From: Nitrospirota bacterium
GTDB lineage: Bacteria; Nitrospirota; UBA9217
NCBI GenBank assembly: GCA_963741205.1
Contig: CAVUHW010000010.1
Coordinates: 32,001-96,000, forward strand
DNA length: 64,000 nucleotides
Reading direction: 5' to 3'
A program made the translations under genes and the position numbers. Of the stretch, positions 43,759 to 58,417 are shown piece after piece. The notes under the pieces were generated by a model. It worked only from the letters and a program-made list of their open reading frames with translations, searched no databases and was not told the DNA's origin. Positions within the stretch are counted from its first letter, which is position 1, and every line of letters begins with the position of its first letter.

Positions 43759-43880
43759 TCTCCGAGTGACGTTCGTATGAAAAAAACGGACAACAAGGCA
43801 TCGGTCATCTCGCAAGAATGAGTCCAACTGCGCTGACATCCTGATGAAAATAACAAGAAATGTCAAGGGGGACATACACG

Positions 43881-44781
43881 ATGGAAAACAGAAAAATCAG
43901 GAAAGTATTCAAGAGCAAGCCTACTCTCGAAGGAGCGGGAGTCCATCTCAGACGGGTATTCGGAAACAGCGAGGTCCCGCTGTTCGATCCATTCCTGATG
44001 CTCGACGATTTCCGCAATACCGACCCCTATCAGTATATCAAGGGGTTTCCCTGGCACCCCCATCGAGGCATCGAGACGATCACGTACGTGCTCAAGGGCG
44101 ACGTGGAGCACGGCGACAGCATGGGCAACAAGGGCGTTATCACGTCGGGAGACATGCAGTGGATGACCGCGGGAAGTGGCATCATCCACCAGGAGATGCC
44201 GCAGGGAGACGACAACGGGGTCATGGAGGGATTTCAGCTCTGGGCCAACCTCCCAAAAGCCGACAAGATGATGGACACCCCGGTACCGCGATATCAAAAG
44301 CTCGCAGGTGCCGGAAGTTGTGACGAAGAGCGGCGCGAAGATCAAGGTCATCTGCGGGACCGTGGAGGGCAGGCAGGGGCCGGTCAGGGACATCGTCATC
44401 GATCCCGAATATCTCGACGTTTCCCTCCCGGCCCTTTCCGAGTTTGTCCATCAGACCCCGCGCGGCCACACGGTCTTTGCCTATGTCATCGGGGGAAAGG
44501 GAGTCTTCTGCAATGAGAAGAACCCCTTCGCCTACGATGCCCTAGGGGAGAACTATTTCGACATGAAGCGCGATCCCTACATCCACAACGGGACGGCCGT
44601 GCTCTTCGGCGACGGCGATCAGGTGACGGTCTCGGCCCAGGGCGAACCCGTCCGCTTTCTGCTCATATCCGGCAAGCCAATCGGCGAGCCCGTGGCCTGG
44701 TACGGTCCGATCGTGATGAATACGGAGGAGGAACTGGAAGTCGCGTTTGAAGAGTATCAGAACGGTACGTTCATTAAGTAA
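43881..44781 (+). CDS. Pirin family protein; frameshifts near 44280-44305
   Basis: DPFLMLD, GFPWHPHRGIETITY, QWMTAGSGIIHQE, FQLWANLP, GPIVMNT. Confidence 0.92.
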
Positions 44782-45523: not shown

Positions 45524-46355
45524 TTCCTCCTTATGGTGGTGCTGGATGAACAGCCCTTCTTGCCTATTGTTATTTTAGTATAGCGGATTTTTTAATCTAT
45601 TGCAGCGAGCTCTTGATCACACTTTCCATCACCTTTCCGCTCACTTCTTTGGCACCCATTTCCCGTGCGATTTATCCCGCACTGTACATCGATTCCTCCC
45701 AACTCATTAACCCTGAAAAGCCGGAACCGACAAGATTGGCGATGGTGAAGAAATAAAGCGGGCTAAGGCATGATGCCCTGGAACTCTCAGTCACCGGCAT
45801 CGCCGTCAATTGTCAGCGAAAAGAAAGAAGGGCTCCTAATATAAACAGTATAGGAGTCCTTCAGTTTGTTGTGATGTGATAGGAAAGTTACCACTGGTAT
45901 TTGTTAGAGTTTAAATCTATTGAATCTTGCGACCTTGTAGTATACGCCGCAAGTTCCAACAAATGAAACTCCCGTGATAATCATTCTGTATCTGTTGACG
46001 TTGCGCTTATCCGTAAAACCCACACTTCATGTCGTCGCGCCAGGTCAAGCCTGGGAAAGGTGGTGGACCAGAAGCCGAAACCTTTCGTCGTGATTCTGTA
46101 GGTAATCAATCCTACCTGGTAAAGCCTGGTCAGCAGCCAGAAGCGAGTCTTGCATGCGCCTAGGTGACTATGTGTGTGAAGCGTAGACAGCTACTGCAAA
46201 AGCCGTGTGATTGAGCCCCGAAATAGCCTCGTGGGAGCTTTCGCCCTCGACATAGCGGGAGCAGCATCGATCGTGCAGTATTGACCTTGCACGACCGATC
46301 CTACCGGGGTCAGAGAGCAGGGCATATGCAGAAGAGGATCACCCAGGAACCTGGG

Positions 46356-48291
46356 GAAAGCGCCGGGATAAACCGGCATAGAGTAGGGAATGAAAGAGTC
46401 CTACGTGAAAGGATGAGCTGATCCATCACGGCCCCGAGTCATGCGCGGGCGGTCGCGAGGCTGCACGTGAAGCGTTGACAGGGGAAGCATAGGCCAGCCA
46501 ATGAGCTCCGAAATCACCCCTTCGGGGTGCCGACCACGTCCCAGGAACGGGAAGGCAACATGGATAACGGCGATAAACAGCCAGTCGTAGTCCGGCCCCG
46601 CGGAGTCTGAGACCCTGTGCATGTGCTTACACTCTATGTTCGAGAACCGGGAGAGCTCAGCAGTTCCTGCCGTTAAATCACATGGCGGCAGGACGGCAAG
46701 GGAAGGCCAGTGGCCGTAATCCTTGCATGCACGCTGCTGAGCAGTCTGACATCGGCGTACTACCGAAGAAGGGGCCGAACAAAATGGTGTGCTCCCATGC
46801 CATGGCGGAGGTTCTGGAGGGAAGGCTGATGACCAAGGGGAAATTCTGAAGAGTCGTCTGCGACCTGTACGCGGAGACAGGAGGAAGCATTGAACGGACT
46901 TGACAGGATACGTGAGGCAGCGGTAAGGGACAAGAAACTTCGGTTCACCAATTTGATGCATCATATCACGGATGAAATGCTCCGAGATGCCTACTCTGCG
47001 CTCAAGCGCAACGCGGCATGCCGGAGTAGACGATATGACATGGCATGAGTATGGTGAGCGCCTGGAGAGCCGGATAGCGGATCTCCATGGCCGTGTGCAG
47101 AGTGGCAGGTATCCGGGCGAAGCCCTCGAAACGGGTTTGGATACCGAAACCGGACGGTCGTCAACGGCCGATCGGCATTGCCGTGCTGGAAGATAAGATA
47201 CGTTGAACAGGCGGTGGTATGGGTACTCAATCAGATCTATGAGCAGGACTTCCTCGGTTTCAGCTACGGATTTCGACCTGAACGCAGCCAACATAACGCG
47301 TTGGATGCAATCTGGGTCGGCATCAAGCAACGGAAGGTAAAATGGGTGCTGGATGCCGACATCAAGAGCTTTTTCGACACGATAAATCATGCGTGGCTGA
47401 TGAAGTTCCTAGAGCATCGCATCGCAGACCCTCGGATGCTCCGCCTGATCCGGAAGTGGCTCAGAGCCGGGGTATCAGAGGATGGCAAGTGGTCAAGAAC
47501 AGAAGTGGGCACGCCGCAAGGGTCGGTGATATCGCCTTTGCTCAGCAACATCTACCTGCATTATGTTCTTGACGAGTGGGTACAATCTTGGCGAAAGAAC
47601 GAGGCGCACGGTGAAATGATCATCGTGCGCTACGCGGATGACTTCGTCATGGGTTTTCAGCACCTGCATGAAGCGAAACGATTTCTTGAGGAAATGAAGG
47701 AGCGATTTGCCCAATACGGCCTGGAAATCCATAGTGAAAAGACCCGACTCATCGAGTTCGGACGATTTGCGGAATCAAATCGTACTGAGCGAGGAGAGAA
47801 AAAGCCTGAAACATTTGACTTTCTTGGGTTCACGCACATTTGCAGCCGAACCCTCAAGGGCAATCATTTCACGATTCATCGTAAGACAATCGCCAAGCGT
47901 CTTCGGGCAAAGCTCAAAGAAGTGAGGGAAGAGGTCATACGCAGACGGCATGAGCCAGTACCGGTACTTGGTAAATGGCTTCGTTCAGTCGTGCAAGGTC
48001 ACCTCAACTACTTTGCGGTGCCCGGCAACACAACGGCAATTAAGGCGTTCCGCAGGGAAATCAACAAGGCATGGCTATACGCGTTGAGGCAACGCAGCCA
48101 GAAGTCCAGTTATCTACCGTGGGACCGAATCAAACTCTTAATTGCGACGTGGATACCTACAGCCATAATACTGCACCCGTACCCAAGCCAGAGGCTTCGC
48201 GTGAACTACCCGAGGTAAGAGCCGTGTGAAGTAATACTTCTCGCACGGATCCGTGCGGGGGGCGTCTGGCAACGGACGTCCCTACCGCGAT
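46356..48291 (+). mobile_element. Group II intron B (class E-like) nested in domain I of intron A
   Basis: Removing it restores GGAACCTGGG|AGGTC; DV gagccgtgtgaagtaatacttctcgcacggatc; 3' end cctaccgcgat; EBS1-like CCCAGG at 46540-46545. Confidence 0.88.
46890..48218 (+). CDS. ltrA: Intron B reverse transcriptase/maturase, no endonuclease domain; about 3 frameshifts in the 5' part
   Basis: RBS aggagg + TTG; RFTNLMHHI, IPKPDGRQRPIGI, SYGFRP, DIKSFFD, GTPQG, YADD, FDFLGF. Confidence 0.9.
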
Positions 48292-48559
48292 AGGTCTTGT
48301 TACTCCGTTTCTAAATGCCGGTGGGGATGACGGAACGAATAACTCCAGGCCTCAAGCGTCTGCGCAGAGATGTTCGAGGAGGTGCGTAATGGCACGAAAC
48401 AAAACGATCAGCGCGAGAAACGGTATCGCCAACTGAAGGAAACGAAAGGCGGCGAGATGGGAAGCAAGACGTCGTAGCGCCTTCATAGTACCGATGAGGC
48501 AGGGGAACGAATCCAATCGGACCCTGCGGAGGTAAGGGGGGCGTCATGTTGTAGAACCG

Positions 48560-49093
48560 TTGATGGGAAAGACAGAGGATGCGATGGAATCCGGAAATAC
48601 AGTCTACACGAAACAGCAACGGATAGCAGAACTCGCGAGGATTCACCCTGATGTAAGTTTCACGTCTCTCGCCCACCACATTGATTTAGTGTGGCTCTAT
48701 GAAGCATTCGGTCGAACGCGGAAGGACGGAGCGACGGGCATAGACAACGTGACAGCAGAGGAGTACGAGCAAGAGTTAAACACGAATCTGCGATCACTGT
48801 TGGAACGCGCCAAATCGGGGAAGTACTATGCGCCACCGGTACTACGGGCGCATATCCCGAAAGACCCGGCAAAGAAGGAAACCCGTCCTATCGGTATACC
48901 GACGTTCGAGGATAAGGTGCTTCAGAGGGCCTGGCAAATGGTGCTGGAGCCACTATATGAACAGGAATTTCTGGACTGCTCATACGGGTTCCGGACAGGG
49001 CGTTCCGCCCACGACGCGTTGCAATCGTTGTGGAAGCAGATGATGGATATAGGCGGATGCTGGATCATCGACCTCGATATTCGGAAGTTTTTC
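48560..49093 (+). CDS. ltrA: Intron A reverse transcriptase, 5' segment (interrupted at DIRKFF|D)
   Basis: FTSLAHHI, GIDNVT, IPK..RPIGIPTFEDK, SYGFR, DLDIRKFF. Confidence 0.9.
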
Positions 49094-49749
49094 GTGCGCC
49101 AGGGTAAGCCCGGCGCTTTCAGCGGGTGCAATTCCCGCCCCGGCAAGGGGAATGAGCCGCCTCACCGGGAATCGAGTCTTGGGCTCATGAAGGCAACGAC
49201 ATGAGTTAAGCGTAGACAGAGCGATGTCCAGGCCGTAACGCAAGTGAAGCGATAGAGCCTCGTGATACATCCGGAGGCCGACAGGGTCGAAAACCTGGAA
49301 GGCTACAGTAGGCGACGAAAAAGGGCGATGGTCGTTGGAGACTCCGGCGGGGTCTGAGAGCACGGCATGGGCAGAAACGGAAGCGTCATGGAACCTGGGA
49401 GATCCACCGCCGTCTCGGTCTGGCGTACAGACCGAGTATGTCTACCGAAAGGACCATCCTGAGGGAGAGAAACGCGACGGTGGAAGTCGGACCGCTGATA
49501 GTACTCGGAGTGCGGGAAAGCCGCATACAGGGGGAAGCGGCGGGGCAGGTTGAGTTGCTGGTCCGGGGAAACATTACCTACACTCAGAGGTAGGAGCACA
49601 ATGTCTACACAACCGGATCAGATCGATGGGTATGACGTTCACCGAACGAGTGCAACCTGGGGAGCCCGTTGCGGGAAATTCGCACGGCGGGTTCTGCGAG
49701 GGGGGACAGGCACAAGAGTACAATACTCAAGGCCTGTCCCTACCCCACC
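49094..49749 (+). mobile_element. Group II intron C, ORF-less (about 656 nt) relative of intron D
   Basis: GTGCGCCAGGG start; DI-DIII nearly identical to D; domain IV reduced to RBS plus MSTQPDQI remnant; DV gagcccgttgcgggaaattcgcacggcgggttc; ends ctaccccacc. Confidence 0.9.
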
Positions 49750-51676
49750 GTGCGCCAGGGTAAGCCCGGCGCTTTCAGCGGGTGCAATTCCCGCCCCGGC
49801 AAGGGGAATGAGCCGCCTCACCGGGAATCGAGTCTTGGGCTCATGAAGGCAACGACATGAGTTAAGCGTAGACAGAGCGATGTCCAGGCCGTAACGCAAG
49901 TGAAGCGATAGAGCCTCGTGATACATCCGGAGGCCGACAGGGTCGAAAACCTGGAAGGCTACAGTAGGCGACCGTAACAGGCGATGGTCGTTGGAGACTC
50001 CGGCGGGGTCTGAGAGCACGGCATGGGCAGAAATGGAAGCGTCATGGAACCTGGGAGATCCATCGCCGTCTCGGTCTGGTTGTCACAGACCGAGTATATC
50101 TACCGAAAGGACCATCCTGAGGGAGATAAACGCGACGGTGGAAGTCGGACCCGCTGATAGTACTCGGAGTGCGGGAAAGCCGCATACAGGGGGAAGCAGT
50201 GGGGCAGGTTGAGTTGCTGGTCCAGGGAAACATTCCCTTCACGCAGAGGTAGGAACCGAATGTCCACACAACTGGATCAGATCAAGGGGAAGGCAAAGTC
50301 GGACCCGAAGCTACGCTTCACATCACTGGCGCACCTGCTCACTCCAGCGTTTCTTAGGGAGACATGGAAACAGATGAACCGGCGTGGGGCGAGCGGAATC
50401 GATGGCGAGACGACGAAGGAGTTTGGGCAAGACCTGGACGCACGGGTTCAATCTCTGAGCGAACGCTTGAAGCAAGGGGCCTACAAGGCTCCACCGGTAC
50501 GCCGAGTGGAAATCCCCAAAGGACCTGGCAGGGAAGGGACAAGACCGCTCGGGATTCCGACGGTCGAAGACCGTCTGCTGCAAAGAGCGGTAGCTCGGAT
50601 ATTGGAAGCGGTGTTCGAGGCGGATTTCTTGGACTGCTCATATGGATTTCGGCCGGGGCGCAATCCCCACGATGCCCTGCGGACATTGCGCACGATCATC
50701 GTCACGAAGAAGGTAGGACACTTGTTCGAAGCTGATATCCGGGGATACTTCAACCACATCCAGCATGAATGGCTGCAAAAGATGGTTGCTCATCGAATTG
50801 CGGACCCGGTCATCCTGCGCCTGATTGGCAAATGGCTGAAAGCGGGCTACATGATGGGAGGAGTCGTTACGCGAACCGAGGAAGGATCGCCACAAGGCGG
50901 GCCGATCAGCCCGATCTTGGCTAACATCTACCTGCACTACGTGCTTGATCTCTGGTTTGAAAAGAAGGTCAAGCCGATGTGCCAGGGTGAGGCGTATCTG
51001 ACGAGATTTGCGGATGATTTTGTGGTGAACTTTCAATATGGCAGAGATGCGGAAGGGTTCAGGAACGAGCCTGACGGATCGATTCGAGAAATTCGGGCTG
51101 GAATTGGCGGAAGAAAAGACGCGGCTGCTGCGCTTCGGACGATTCGTACGTGCGGACCTCGCAAAGACCGGCGATAAGCCGGATACGTTTGACTTTCTTG
51201 GCTTCAAGCATGTCTGTGGTATAGACCAAGGTGGGAAGTTTGCCTTGGTGCGGATTCCGTGCGTCAAAAGCTGCCGAAAGTTCTTGGCCAAGACCAAGGA
51301 ATGGCTCAAGGGGCATATACATTGGAAGCGGCGTGACCAGCAAAGTCAGTTGAAGATGATGCTGCACGGCTTCTACCAATACTTTGGACTGCATCACTGC
51401 AAGCCGAAACTCGACATGGTACGCAGCGCAGTACAGCTCCAATGGATTCGGACGCTACGGAGAAAGAGCCAACGTCACCGACTATACTGGTGCTACCTTA
51501 ATAGCCGAGACTGGTTCAAATTACCGTATGCGGTATCAACACGCCACGCGACGGTTTGACTTTCATTCATCCATTGAGTGCAATCTGGGGAGCCCGTTGC
51601 GGGAAAGCCGCACGGCGGGTTCTGCGAGGGGGGACAGGCACAAGAGGACAACACTCAAGGTCTGTCTCTACCCACC
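49750..51676 (+). mobile_element. Group II intron D (class F-like), directly head-to-tail after C within the RT gene of A
   Basis: GTGCGCCAGGG start; RT ORF; DV gagcccgttgcgggaaagccgcacggcgggttc; ends ctacccacc, after which RT A resumes (T-M-V-H). Confidence 0.9.
50260..51559 (+). CDS. ltrA: Intron D reverse transcriptase/maturase, no endonuclease domain; frameshift near 51065
   Basis: RFTSLAHLL, RPLGIPTVEDR, SYGFRPG, DIRGYFN, GSPQGG, FADD, FDFLGF. Confidence 0.9.
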
Positions 51677-52503
51677 ATACGATGGTCCATAAACACATCA
51701 GGGAGATACTCAAGAGGCGGGTGAGTGACGGAGTAATAACGAGACTCATAGATAAGTGGTTGAAGGCCGGTGTATGGGAGGCAGGAAACATCAGTTACCC
51801 GGAAAAGGGTACTCCTCAAGGCGGCGTGATATCCCCCATGCTGAGTAATATTTATCTTCATGAGGTACTGGACCTGTGGTTTGAGAAGGAAGTAAAACCA
51901 CGCCTCCGCGGCAAAGCGTTTCTGATTCGGTATGCCGATGATGCTGTGTTGGGATTTGCAACCGAAGACGATGCCCGGAGAGTAATGGAAGTGCTTCCGA
52001 AGCGGTTTGCCCGATATGGCTTGACGATCCACCCGGAGAAGACCCGTGTGGTGAGGTTCGTAAAGCCGGAAGACATCAACTCGGGGGGCCACAGCCAGGA
52101 CAAGGATAACACGTTCAACTTTCTAGGATTCACTCACTACTGGGCAAAATCCCGTAAAGGTACAGCGGTGATCAAGCGAAGTACCGAGAAGAGCCGGTTC
52201 ATGCGAGCGCTTATGAAGATTAAGGAGTGGTGCAGAACCAATCGGCACAACCCACTGAAGGAGCAGCATAAGACGCTGAACCAGAAACTTCGAGGCCACT
52301 ACGCCTATTACGGGATCAGAGGCAACAGCCAGGCATTGGGGCACTTCTACCACAAGGTGAGACGGCTCTGGCGCAAATGGCTACAGCGAAGGTCGTGCGA
52401 TGGTAGTATCCCGTGGGATAACTTCGCACTACTTGAAAAGGTCTATCCACTTGCGCCAGCGAGAATCGTTCACTCCGCATACTTACGCAAAGCTACAGCA
52501 TGA
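51677..52503 (+). CDS. ltrA: Intron A reverse transcriptase, 3' segment
   Basis: TMVHKH, KWLKAG, GTPQGGVISP, YADD, FNFLGF, maturase X motif LRGHYAYY. Confidence 0.9.
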
Positions 52504-53520
52504 AGAACCGAATGCGTTAATCGCGCACGTTCGGGTCTGTGGGGGGCTGGGGCAGGTGACTGCCCTGGCCTACCTGGCTAACATTCAGTGCACTGATCAT
52601 CCTGAAACGAACGTTCCTAGCCTCTCGTAAAAACGTGAACTTCCTGTCGTAACTGGTACCCTTCATCCTCATCATCTCACAAGAAGGATCTCTTCCTCCC
52701 GATGATATTCTGCATTTCAAGATCCTCAACTTCAGCGTACCCCTAAATGTTGTCAGGAAAAAAGAAGCTAATAATCAGGGATTCCATGATTGACCAAATA
52801 CAATATTTCCGTCATATTTAATAAAAACACAATAACAGCCAATACAGTATCACAGTAGAACTTATGATGTCTTACATGAAAGTTGCGGAACGGTGCAATC
52901 GCACCCTGGCGTTCATGCTGTTAATCGCGACCCGCACGCTCAGTTTGACCATGTCGCCTGCGTTAGTCGACAGCGACAAGCGCATCGTGAGAGTCATGAC
53001 CCAGAACATGGATGCGGGAACAGATCTGCTGTTCTTTTTTGCCTCTCCTTAGAACCTCAGTTGCGCAAAGGAGTGTACGTAAAATTAAGTCGAAACAAAA
53101 AAAATCTGCATTCCATCAGCTTCCCGTCAGGCCTCAGTAGTATAAGCATGTCATACGCACCAAGCGATGGAAAACACGAATTGTATTGGTGATTGCATAC
53201 CGAGGAAAGAAGGGAGGTGGCGAAGAGATCGATAAGAACAGAGGCAACACGCAAGAGGCAGCAAGGATTTTCGGGAGAATGGTCTTTCGGTCATCGATTG
53301 AAGAAAAATGTGGAATTGATATGGATGTTACATTTTTATTGAAGGAGGGCATGTAACATGAAAGCAACATTCGGCAAGAGATGGGCATTTGTGGTTTTTT
53401 GATGGTTTTTGCGTTACTGGCACCATGCTGGACGTCGGCGGAAACGAAATGCCAGGGGCAAACCAGCATTGGGAAATTCGATCGGCATCAGATCAGCGGT
53501 TTGCAGCAGGGGTATGGATT

Positions 53521-56148: not shown

Positions 56149-57205
56149 ATGGAAAGCCTAATCGTTGGCGTCGATGTTTCCAAGGAGTCCTTTTCTACGG
56201 CCGGCCTTGACGGCAAAGGGACGCGTTGTTTCTCTGAAGAATACACCATGGACAGTGATGGGTTTTCGAAGTTCCTGGCCATGATAATAGCACAACGGCC
56301 GGATGTCTCCCATGTCACTGTCGGCATGGAGTCAACTGGCATCTACCACCTCAATCTCTTTTCTTATCTCACAGCACAAGGCATCCATGCCGTGGTCATT
56401 AATCCGCTGTTGATCGCGAACTTTGCCAAACTGTCACTCCGGAAGACCAAGACCGACAAAAAAGATGCCATGACGATCGCCCAGTTCCTGCTGGCACACT
56501 TGGACAAGATCTCACAGATGTCAATCAGCCAGGACATGCAGGATATGCGCGATCTCGCCCGGGAGCGAGAGTCCTTGAGCCATTTGATTTCCGCGACTAA
56601 GACCGAGATCAAGGGGGTGTTGCAAACGACCTTTCCTGAGCTTGAGCGCCTTTGCAATGTCTTTACGGGCATCATGCTTGCCTTTTTGAAGGAGTTTCCC
56701 TCCGCTCGCTTGATCAATATGGCTAAGCCGCAGGCAATAGCAAACGCCATGGAACCACGCAGTGCAGGGAGCAGGATATCTACCTTTACTGCTGACGATG
56801 TAATCAAGCTGGCCAAAAATTCGGTTGGGATGGTTAGCCCGGCCAAAGAAACCATCCTGCGGGGCAAAATATCGACGCTGCTCCATCTGGAAGATCGTCG
56901 GGACGAATTGACGGCCATGCTCACGGATTACTGCAACTCCCTGATGGTGGAAGACCTGGCAATAGTAACATCCGTGAAAGGCATCAGCAGCGGGACCGGG
57001 ACCACTTTCCTGTCCGAGATAGGGAGCATCGAGAACTACGGCACGCACAAGAACCTGATTGCATACACAGGGGTTGATCCAACGGTGTATCAATCAGGCA
57101 AGTATCAGGGGGCAAGTAAGATCTCGAAGAGAGGAAATAAGCATCTTAGGCGAGTGCTATGGCTTATGACGGCGAGTGTGATCATGCATAACAAAAACTT
57201 CCGAG
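56149..57205 (+). pseudogene. IS110 family transposase/recombinase, C-terminus truncated by an IS3 insertion
   Basis: VGVDVSK, GMESTG, KTDKKDA (DEDD), VYQSG, ISKRGNKHLR. Confidence 0.9.
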
Positions 57206-57265
57206 TAAGCCTCCCCCGATTTGATGGACACTCCGAGTAGTTGTATAATCTGAGAGGAGGCGTCT

Positions 57266-57565
57266 ATGGGGAAGAGCGAACGTCGTCAATTCACCCAAGA
57301 GTTCAAAAGAAATGCTGTTAATCTCGTAATGGAGAAAGGTGTTCCCGTGAGGAAGGTTGCGCGTGACCTTGATATTCATCCTAATCTGGTGCATCAATGG
57401 AGGCGGATGTATATGGCAGAAGGGAACGGCGCATTTGTGGGGACAGGGAATTTAAAGCCTGAGGACGCAGAGTTGAAGCGCCTCCAGAAGGAACTGGAGG
57501 AAGTCAAAGAAGAGCGAGATATTTTAAAAAAAGCCTTGGGCGTCTTTTCCAAACGAAGCTGGTAA
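57266..57565 (+). CDS. IS3 OrfA (HTH)
   Basis: RRQFTQEFK, VARDLDI, EERDILKKA. Confidence 0.9.
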   Translation: MGKSERRQFTQEFKRNAVNLVMEKGVPVRKVARDLDIHPNLVHQWRRMYMAEGNGAFVGTGNLKPEDAELKRLQKELEEVKEERDILKKALGVFSKRSW

Positions 57566-57613
57566 AGTATCCTGTTCATTGAAAAGTACCGGGAAGAGTA
57601 TCGGCTTACGAAG

Positions 57614-58417
57614 ATGTGCAAGGTATTGGGAGTCTCACGAAGTGGTTATTATGCGTGGAGGAGACGAAAACCTGGCAAGCGCTGGAACGAGAACGAGCTG
57701 CTTCTGGACCGTATTCAAGAGATCTACCAGAAGAACAGACGGGTTTACGGCAGCCCGCGGATAACTGAAGAGCTCCGTGAGCAAGGCAGCAGATGCGGAA
57801 AGAACCGGATCGCCAGGATCATGAAAGATAACGGAATTCGGGCAGAGGTGAAGAGGAGGTTCAGGAAGACCACAGATTCAAGGCATAACTACGCATTGGC
57901 CGCCAATTTACTGATTCAAGACGGCTATAAAGGCCCGCTATGGGCATCTGATATTACGTTTGTCCCGACCAGTGAGGGATGGCTCTATGTATCAGCGGTC
58001 ATGAGCGTGCAGTCCAGAAAGATCATCGGGTTGTCCATGAAGGACCAGCTGACGGAGGAGCTGGCAGCTACAGCACTGAAGCAGGCCGTGACCAGGGAGA
58101 AGCCGCCAGAGGGCTTGATCCATCATTCTGATCGCGGCAGGCAATATGCGAGTTATGGATATCAGGCGATCCTGAGACGATACGGCATAACGCCCAGCAT
58201 GAGCAGAAAAGGCAATTGCTATGATAACGCCTATATGGAGTCGTTCTTCAGCACGCTAAAACGAGAGCTGGTCCACGGTGAACGGTATCGAACGCGGGAA
58301 GAAGCGAGATTAAGTATCTTTGAGTATGTGGAAGTGTTTTATAATCGCATCAGGAAACACTCGGGATTGGGATATAAGAGCCCAGAGCAGTACGAAAAGA
58401 GCCTAAAAGAAACTTAA
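57614..58417 (+). CDS. IS3 OrfB (DDE integrase core), fused to OrfA by -1 frameshift
   Basis: WASDIT, HHSDRGRQY, GNCYDNAYMESFF. Confidence 0.92.
   Translation: MCKVLGVSRSGYYAWRRRKPGKRWNENELLLDRIQEIYQKNRRVYGSPRITEELREQGSRCGKNRIARIMKDNGIRAEVKRRFRKTTDSRHNYALAANLLIQDGYKGPLWASDITFVPTSEGWLYVSAVMSVQSRKIIGLSMKDQLTEELAATALKQAVTREKPPEGLIHHSDRGRQYASYGYQAILRRYGITPSMSRKGNCYDNAYMESFFSTLKRELVHGERYRTREEARLSIFEYVEVFYNRIRKHSGLGYKSPEQYEKSLKET

Follow-up and report, generated by a model that had tools for sequence, protein, structure and literature searches.

A four-intron nest in a Nitrospirota genome and a lineage of group II introns found at reverse transcriptase motif codons

Four group II introns at one locus

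The window analyzed here is a stretch of 64,000 nucleotides from a Nitrospirota bacterium (assembly GCA_963741205.1, contig CAVUHW010000010.1, positions 32,001 to 96,000), and the system of interest in it is a nest of four group II introns, referred to as A, B, C and D, with all features on the + strand. A scan with the Rfam models RF02005 (domains D1-D4, gathering score 49) and Intron_gpII (RF00029, domains V and VI, hereafter DV/DVI), together with a comparison of the open reading frames (ORFs) with Pfam, gives four RF02005 cores, all of one type, starting at 46106, 46395, 49129 and 49785, and four DV/DVI ends at 48291, 49748, 51676 and 52578. Introns C (49094-49749) and D (49750-51676) lie in tandem, head to tail, inside the reverse transcriptase (RT) gene of the outer intron A, with D beginning directly after the last base of C. 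Both begin with GTGCG and end with CTACCC(C)ACC, and they are 95.7% identical in their 5' part and 92.2% identical in their 3' part.

Intron C consists of a complete ribozyme (RF02005 at 49129-49362, 124.5 bits; DV-DVI at 49660-49748, RF00029, 45.4 bits) without any ORF and carries the exon-binding loop of D, which fits an ORF-less intron mobilized in trans. D is of full length (RF02005 at 49785-50018, 124.2 bits; DV-DVI at 51588-51676, RF00029, 40.0 bits), and its RT/maturase ORF at 50260-51559 is matched by RVT_1 with an E-value of 2.2e-24, with one extra base at 51067 in the window. The GIIM maturase match of this protein is weak (19.5 bits against a cut-off of 23), and Pfam gives no endonuclease domain in the ORF.

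The host gene is split by the tandem at a conserved position. The 5' part of A's RT (48560-49093, RVT_1 profile positions 1-79 of 205) ends in DLDIRKFF, the 5' exon ending at 49093 as ...AAGTTTTTC (KFF; AAG TTT TTC), and the 3' part (51677-52503, RVT_1 positions 86-204 and GIIM) resumes with the AT of the Asp codon, followed by TMVHKH... and the maturase domain. The loop CGAAAA is present in C at 49288-49293 and in D at 49944-49949 and is complementary to the exon sequence TTTTCG, so that the first-pass annotation of this DNA was correct in describing one shared loop that matches the FFD codons of A's RT. By Rfam alignment and by folding, CGAAAA belongs to a terminal loop of 8 nt (GUCGAAAA) that closes a D1 hairpin whose stem is CAGG/CCUG (-13.5 kcal/mol, z -3.2, with 0 of 200 shuffles equally good), and this is the place of the loop of the type of exon-binding site 1 (EBS1) in the RF02005 model. 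The intron-binding site 1 (IBS1) of the target, TTTTTC, occupies 49088-49093. In all relatives the exon ends in ...TTYTTYG, the intron starts with GTGCG and the 3' flank resumes with AY, and the insertion therefore follows the first base of the Asp codon (FF-G|AY). The annotated site at the FFD codons of RT motif 3 (RT3) thus stands, and its exact position moves one base further 3', to after the G.

That G is absent from the window. To examine this, contigs of four public runs (runs are denoted by X and a number) were aligned to 45950-52650, where uncovered parts are uninformative. One X1 short-read contig inserts a G behind 49093, and the open-frame intervals show that the two halves of A's RT are in frame once it is present. 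An empty site also exists, as one X2 contig joins 49094 to 51677, which gives TTTTTCG|ATACG (FFDT) in an A-like RT and fixes the 3' end of D. Further X1 contigs, which differ from D at 1 and 0 positions over 49795-51677, suggest along with loose ends found at 49088 and at 51677 that a D-type copy resides in a different RT host (DLEKF.. / DRVNHDIL).

The two remaining introns frame this arrangement. Intron A spans 46034-52579 with approximate ends (RF02005 at 46106-46319; Intron_gpII DV/DVI at 52503-52578), and contigs of other contexts begin matching at 46021-46023. Intron B (46356-48291; RF02005 at 46395-46615; DV/DVI at 48217-48291) lies within A on the 5' side of A's ORF, and A without B is seen in X2 and X3 contigs that run from 46355 straight on to 48292 and so leave out 1936 nt. 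This joint also fixes the start of B, which reads GAAAGCGCC at 46356-46365 and not GTGCG; at the B-like start, related host introns elsewhere read AGCGCC (L027 and L035, where L numbers denote loci of the survey described below) or GTGCGCC (L026 and L037).

The missing G is one of several single-base indels that distinguish the window from the short-read contigs (47018, 47114, 47202, 49093, 49672 and 51067). X1 contigs lack the window's extra base at 51067 in D's RT and those at 47018, 47114 and 47202 in B's RT, and omitting these bases joins the open frames of D and of B (the latter at about 46880-48215), so that both RTs are probably intact, which would bring the number of intact RT genes in the nest to three. 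Errors of assembly are the best explanation of the frameshifts, and decay of B and D into pseudogenes was rejected on the same grounds. A gene upstream of the nest is likewise split into overlapping frames (43860-44516 and 44308-44781), perhaps by the same kind of indel. Downstream of the nest, at 56149-58417, lie three ORFs that we take, from their translations only, to be an IS110-type transposase and a two-ORF IS3-type element.

Relatives of D and a sister clade at RT motif 4

In order to place D among its relatives, we used the N-terminal 269 residues of its RT as a query against species-representative genomes and kept 80 of the 351 loci found; at 50 of the 80 the 5' end aligns to D from the first bases. 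A quick tree, with midpoint rooting and support values from the Shimodaira-Hasegawa-like approximate likelihood ratio test only, separates a 58-row clade (support 99) from a 22-row outgroup. Copies with at least 80% nucleotide identity are called D-type, and a sister clade lies at 74-78%. The lineage is bacterial and occurs in several phyla; relatives are present in many soil bacteria, and strains of Paraburkholderia nemoris and Bradyrhizobium have them.

The RT3 motif D[LIV]xx[FYC][FY] ends the 5' flank in 22 of 27 D-type copies, the window included, or in 19 of 24 when distinct flank clusters are counted. By tblastn, 19 of 26 D-type 5' flanks are homologous to RT, and no such homology was found for the other seven (L014, L006, L013, L017, L047, L045 and L020). 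In four hosts (A in the window, L012, L008 and L022) the break falls at position 79 of the Pfam RVT_1 profile, and the 3' flanks of D-type copies run AY xxx xxx CAC. A host ribozyme was recognized upstream in 16 of the 20 loci scanned, and it belongs to Rfam type D1D4-6 in nine cases, D1D4-4 in four and D1D4-3 in three. The loops of D-type copies vary as CGAAAAC, CGAAAAT, CGAATAT and CAAATAT. It had been proposed from the window alone that C and D belong to a second lineage specialized on RT coding motifs, and the D-type counts support this, with the sister clade as a second case.

A metagenome scan with a 14-base junction word (TTCG then GTGCGCCAGG) served as a control and returned 81 matches in 80 loci, of which 79 are attributable to chance, the word being too short. 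The RT3 motif ends the flank in 0 of the 78 unrelated metagenome sequences that have a flank. The only match that is D-like over its length, L122, occupies a non-RT site ending in TATTCG, with which its loop CGAATA pairs at 6 of 6 positions, and L167 shows a short D-like end at DADIEGFF.

The sister clade uses two other sites. In 17 of its 22 copies the intron follows YLH[YH]+G of RT motif 4 (RT4), and in the other 5 it follows LGGLHH[QH]Y+G near the end of an rve_3 transposase (Pfam). The 9-nt loop of these introns holds CGUAGUG or variants, and it pairs with the exon at 7 of 7 positions in 15 of 17 copies and at 6 of 7 in two. Loop and exon covary: CGTAGTG occurs with CACTACG, CACTATG, CATTACG and CATTATG, CATATTG with CAATATG, and CGTATTG with CAGTACG, with CATAGTG as a further loop variant. 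Two loop Gs lie opposite codon third positions, and therefore every synonym of His-Tyr(-G) pairs. The assignment of the loop to EBS1 is firmer in the sister clade than in the D-type copies, in which 4 to 6 of 7 positions pair. The rve_3 branch (L033, L034, L041, L056 and L057) has LGGLHHQY+G followed by VRI and a stop, with loops retuned to CATATTG and CGTATTG. This site is similar in DNA to the RT4 site, and its use looks like a secondary retargeting from RT4. As a separate structural observation, domain VI of L021-L026 and of the sister-clade loci carries an insertion of about 80 nt, some 80 nt before the 3' end, that is absent from D and its closest relatives.

The introns' own RTs and the weighing of explanations

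The RTs encoded by these introns differ from their targets within the targeted motifs. D's own RT3 reads DIRGYFNH (YFN; TAC TTC AAC, 50746-50754), as the first-pass annotation had stated, and its TACTTCA places an A, not a G, opposite the C of the loop, so that the target is lacking. Within the 58-row clade the own RT3 is YFN in 32 rows and YFT in 25 (57 of 58, L057 being unreadable) and has Asp in none, and in the 22-row outgroup it has Asp in 18 and FFN in 4. The outgroup introns sit at other sites (GGCGTTA| and ATGA|), outside RT genes. The own RT3 sites pair with the loop at 3 to 4 of 7 positions and always have A at -1, and every used target has G there. Because YFD hosts are used, it is the change from Asp to Asn (G to A at -1), not that from Phe to Tyr, that removes the site. 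The check proposed on the window alone, namely whether YFN-type RTs go together with this loop and this site, came out as anticipated: they co-occur with CGAAAA-type loops and with insertion at [F/Y]F-G|AY, and YFN introns with unrelated targets were not seen, the five D-type flanks without the RT3 motif still ending in TTTCG or TTTG.

At RT4 the own protein reads YLHF, a mismatch at -3, in all sister-clade RTs read there and also in most D-type RTs; at RT3 the sister clade has YFT. D's own RT4 codons, CAC TAC G (LHY-V; 50935-50941), keep CACTACG and are unoccupied, although they are a perfect site for the sister clade with a 7/7 match to its loop CGUAGUG. The targets TTY TTY G and CAY TAY G allow no synonymous escape, and therefore an intron of this specificity could persist only if its own RT protein differs. 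In 36 of 48 copies an open frame of at least 400 residues is kept, and an open frame thus seems compatible with Asn or Thr at the position of the Asp that follows the steric-gate aromatic pair; most of the other copies are broken by other mobile elements.

An element with a 568-residue ORF and 20-nt inverted ends lies in the GGP|ISP codons of the RT motif 4 region of D-lineage RTs (L045:3655-5897, L046, L047 and L056:3669-5945). Its presence in two clades and in different genomes suggests a site preference of its own; from its N-terminal sequence only, we take the ORF to be a large serine recombinase. A 460-residue ORF, presumably an IS110-type transposase from the look of its sequence only, lies between FDFL and GF of RT motif 7 in a D-type RT (L017:3949-5560 and L052).

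Taken together, we think it likely, from sequence comparison, that C and D belong to a mobile endonuclease-less (En-less) lineage that homes on the DNA encoding a near-invariant RT motif of other group II introns. Near-identical copies in different hosts point indirectly to retrohoming activity. The EBS1 loop CGAAAA pairs with TTTTCG, that is, with the Phe-Phe codons and the first base of the Asp codon in RT motif 3, and the intron RNA would reverse-splice directly after that G. The DNA copy would be made by the intron's RT, perhaps with priming at the replication fork by analogy with En-less introns, and splicing would restore the FFD of the host RT. D presumably arrived before C at the same junction, with RT supplied in trans; the 5' exon survives insertion, so that the ORF-less C could insert at D's junction, and splicing of the nest would then proceed in the order C, D, A. 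Asn or Thr for Asp in the RTs of the lineage puts A at the critical -1 position, and the sister clade probably follows the same logic at RT motif 4, with its own RT reading YLHF.

Several observations weigh against this account. Three flanks that carry the RT3 motif (L014, L017 and L045) have no RT homology by tblastn, and 5 of the 27 D-type 5' flanks lack the motif; among these five sites L006, L013 and L047 lie outside RT genes, L068 lies in RT motif 2a, and L020 is RT-like in its 3' flank only. The loop-exon pairing of D-type copies falls to only 4 positions at YFD hosts. In the same locus, the perfect TTTTTCG site in B's RT (KSFF-D, read KSFFDT in the first-pass annotation, which had rightly called it vacant; 47370-47376, predicted insertion point after 47376) is unoccupied, both in the window and in an X2 contig covering 47305-47456. 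An insertion in this site, which the first-pass annotation had proposed to look for at 47375, has no read evidence among the contigs and loose ends listed, and no spliced form was found in the RNA run X19, both statements applying to the covered parts. A comparison of 48 introns with the exon from -30 to -7 gave no consistent EBS2/IBS2 pairing, the best window holding for 33% of introns, and target recognition is therefore only partly explained. On the side of the protein, FFN in 4 of 22 outgroup RTs, at GGCGTTA| sites, means that Asn is tolerated without RT homing, and the figure of 57 of 58 reflects shared ancestry and thus one or a few ancestral substitutions.

These last two points bear on an explanation that we consider rather unlikely but of real weight, in which the targeting is real and the self-avoidance unselected, Asn/Thr at RT3 and Phe at RT4 having been neutral changes in an ancestor that permitted, or survived, a later shift of the loop. 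FFN has arisen separately in the outgroup RTs with non-RT targets, the alterations are common to the whole lineage, as one or two ancestral events would leave them, and some D-type RTs, D included, keep YLHY and yet are uninvaded there. However, the altered bases are exactly those that break pairing beside or within IBS1 (-1 for RT3, -3 for RT4), synonymous escape is impossible, and a third, unrelated lineage that homes after YADD+T also has G, not T, at -1 in its own RT. The two explanations differ mainly in the order of events, and selection for self-avoidance or immunity is plausible, though the case for it rests on few ancestral substitutions. The first-pass annotation had proposed self-avoidance written into the protein: the own RTs do lack the target (YFN/YFT and YLHF), while the changes are few and ancestral and the Tyr of YFN is irrelevant to it.

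Whether the introns moved repeatedly at all could also be asked, since one old insertion might have made a twintron that then spread as a unit, and the link to RT genes would be inherited. Both intron and flank are shared in 4 of 11 within-genome pairs, a further point against repeated homing, as some copies therefore spread as whole twintrons, and several hosts of type DADLSxYF recur across genomes. As a general explanation, though, this is very improbable and largely refuted, because the inner introns are 99.7-100% identical in the other 7 of the 11 pairs while the 5' flanks are only 60-67% identical, three Rfam ribozyme types are represented among the hosts, an A-type site is also found empty, and loop and exon covary. 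A narrower question concerns the tandem, which could be a local duplication of D with deletion of the ORF from one copy instead of a second homing event. C and D occupy a single site; the genome from which the window comes (4.27 Mb, 84% complete) yielded no C/D-type copy beyond these two, and no second-site C-type copy was found either there or among the 50 related loci, nor any C-D-like tandem among those other 50. We nevertheless regard duplication as improbable, as the two introns differ by 4.3% in the 5' part and 7.8% in the 3' part, which is much for neighbors, and the end of C meets the start of D exactly, as reverse splicing after a retained 5' exon would give.

Comparison with known introns and significance

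The strategy itself is known, and the feature described here is real and well supported. The comparisons that follow draw on parts of the cited papers. For the introns M.a.I5, UA.I3, P.l.I2 and B.th.I3 the specific insertion site is the catalytic motif RYADD in RT ORFs, and members of this YADD-homing group share 58-67% nucleotide identity (Tourasse and Kolsto, 2008; PMC2504315). The C/D lineage resembles them in being En-less, in having as IBS the DNA that codes for a conserved motif in the RT of other retroelements, and in making twintrons. It differs from them in its motifs, RT3 (FF+G) for C and D and RT4 (YLHY+G) for the sister clade as against motif 5, and in that its own RT is altered inside the targeted motifs.

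A YADD-type intron was also met within the present survey, at L051:3759-5650 inside a D-lineage RT, right after FADD+T, and is of Rfam type D1D4-2. Three relatives with 77% identity (L099, L101 and L102, all in genome G064) follow CYADD+T, RYADD+T and NYADD+T, so that 4 of 4 copies lie at ...GAYGACT| ([YF]ADD+T), with the loop AGUCGU or AGUUGU, and their own RT has G, not T, at -1. Their target matches that of the published YADD-homing group (PMC2504315). In contrast to the L051 intron, the lineage of C and D is of type D1D4-6, and the RTs of the two are 35.7% identical.

Nesting of group II introns has been described in Methanosarcina acetivorans, where repeated homing into introns gives up to five nested copies with the host gene unaffected, and the nest is regarded as a perpetual homing site (PMC4424553). 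Site-specific homing into introns is common to both systems; those nests are archaeal, however, and the lineage considered here is the bacterial one spread over several phyla. The twintrons of Thermosynechococcus elongatus include the ORF-less TeI3/TeI4, mobilized by the RT of a relative (PMC2882425), and are similar in having ORF-less derivatives and a conserved site in the ORF region of another intron. In that case, unlike C and D, the site lies between two start codons and in one genome only, and the part of the account used here describes no single-site tandem (PMC2882425). The sister branch in the 3' end of the rve_3 transposase, with its matching loop, recalls the RmInt1-type introns that home into insertion sequence (IS) elements (PMC1802570, PMC3522654), from which it differs in that the DNA of its site is similar to that of the RT4 site.

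We found no report in the literature of homing into FF-D or YLHY codons or of self-protective RT changes, and earlier Methanosarcina work (Dai and Zimmerly, 2002, 2003) may cover other motifs. Set beside published YADD homing, the literature searched offered no precedent for the targeting of motifs 3 and 4 by a different ribozyme type, for a switch of target from one motif to another, or for corresponding changes in the own RT. A wider picture, about which we are somewhat more doubtful than convinced, is that among the group II introns of soil bacteria parasites may live on parasites in several layers. For several lineages, RT motifs 3, 4 and 5, whose codons would be the stretch of a retroelement least free to mutate, would serve as universal landing sites, and this would have driven the changes from Asp to Asn/Thr and from Tyr to Phe at near-invariant RT positions, as immunity to self and to sister introns; loop Gs would cover the synonyms, and sub-lineages would switch between motifs, and also onto a transposase that shares the DNA word.

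For annotation, the intron pipelines of PMC4028801 and PMC8919778 state that they discard nested copies, and pipelines of this kind will miss such lineages, while long-read assemblies can make live nested introns resemble pseudogenes. For the biology of these introns, a selfish element of this kind secures a target that is present wherever its competitors exist and that is unable to mutate silently, and the price is that its own enzyme has to change where residues are normally fixed. The lineage thereby offers a natural experiment on which active-site residues of an RT are replaceable, and a case in which conflict between mobile elements can be put to the test.

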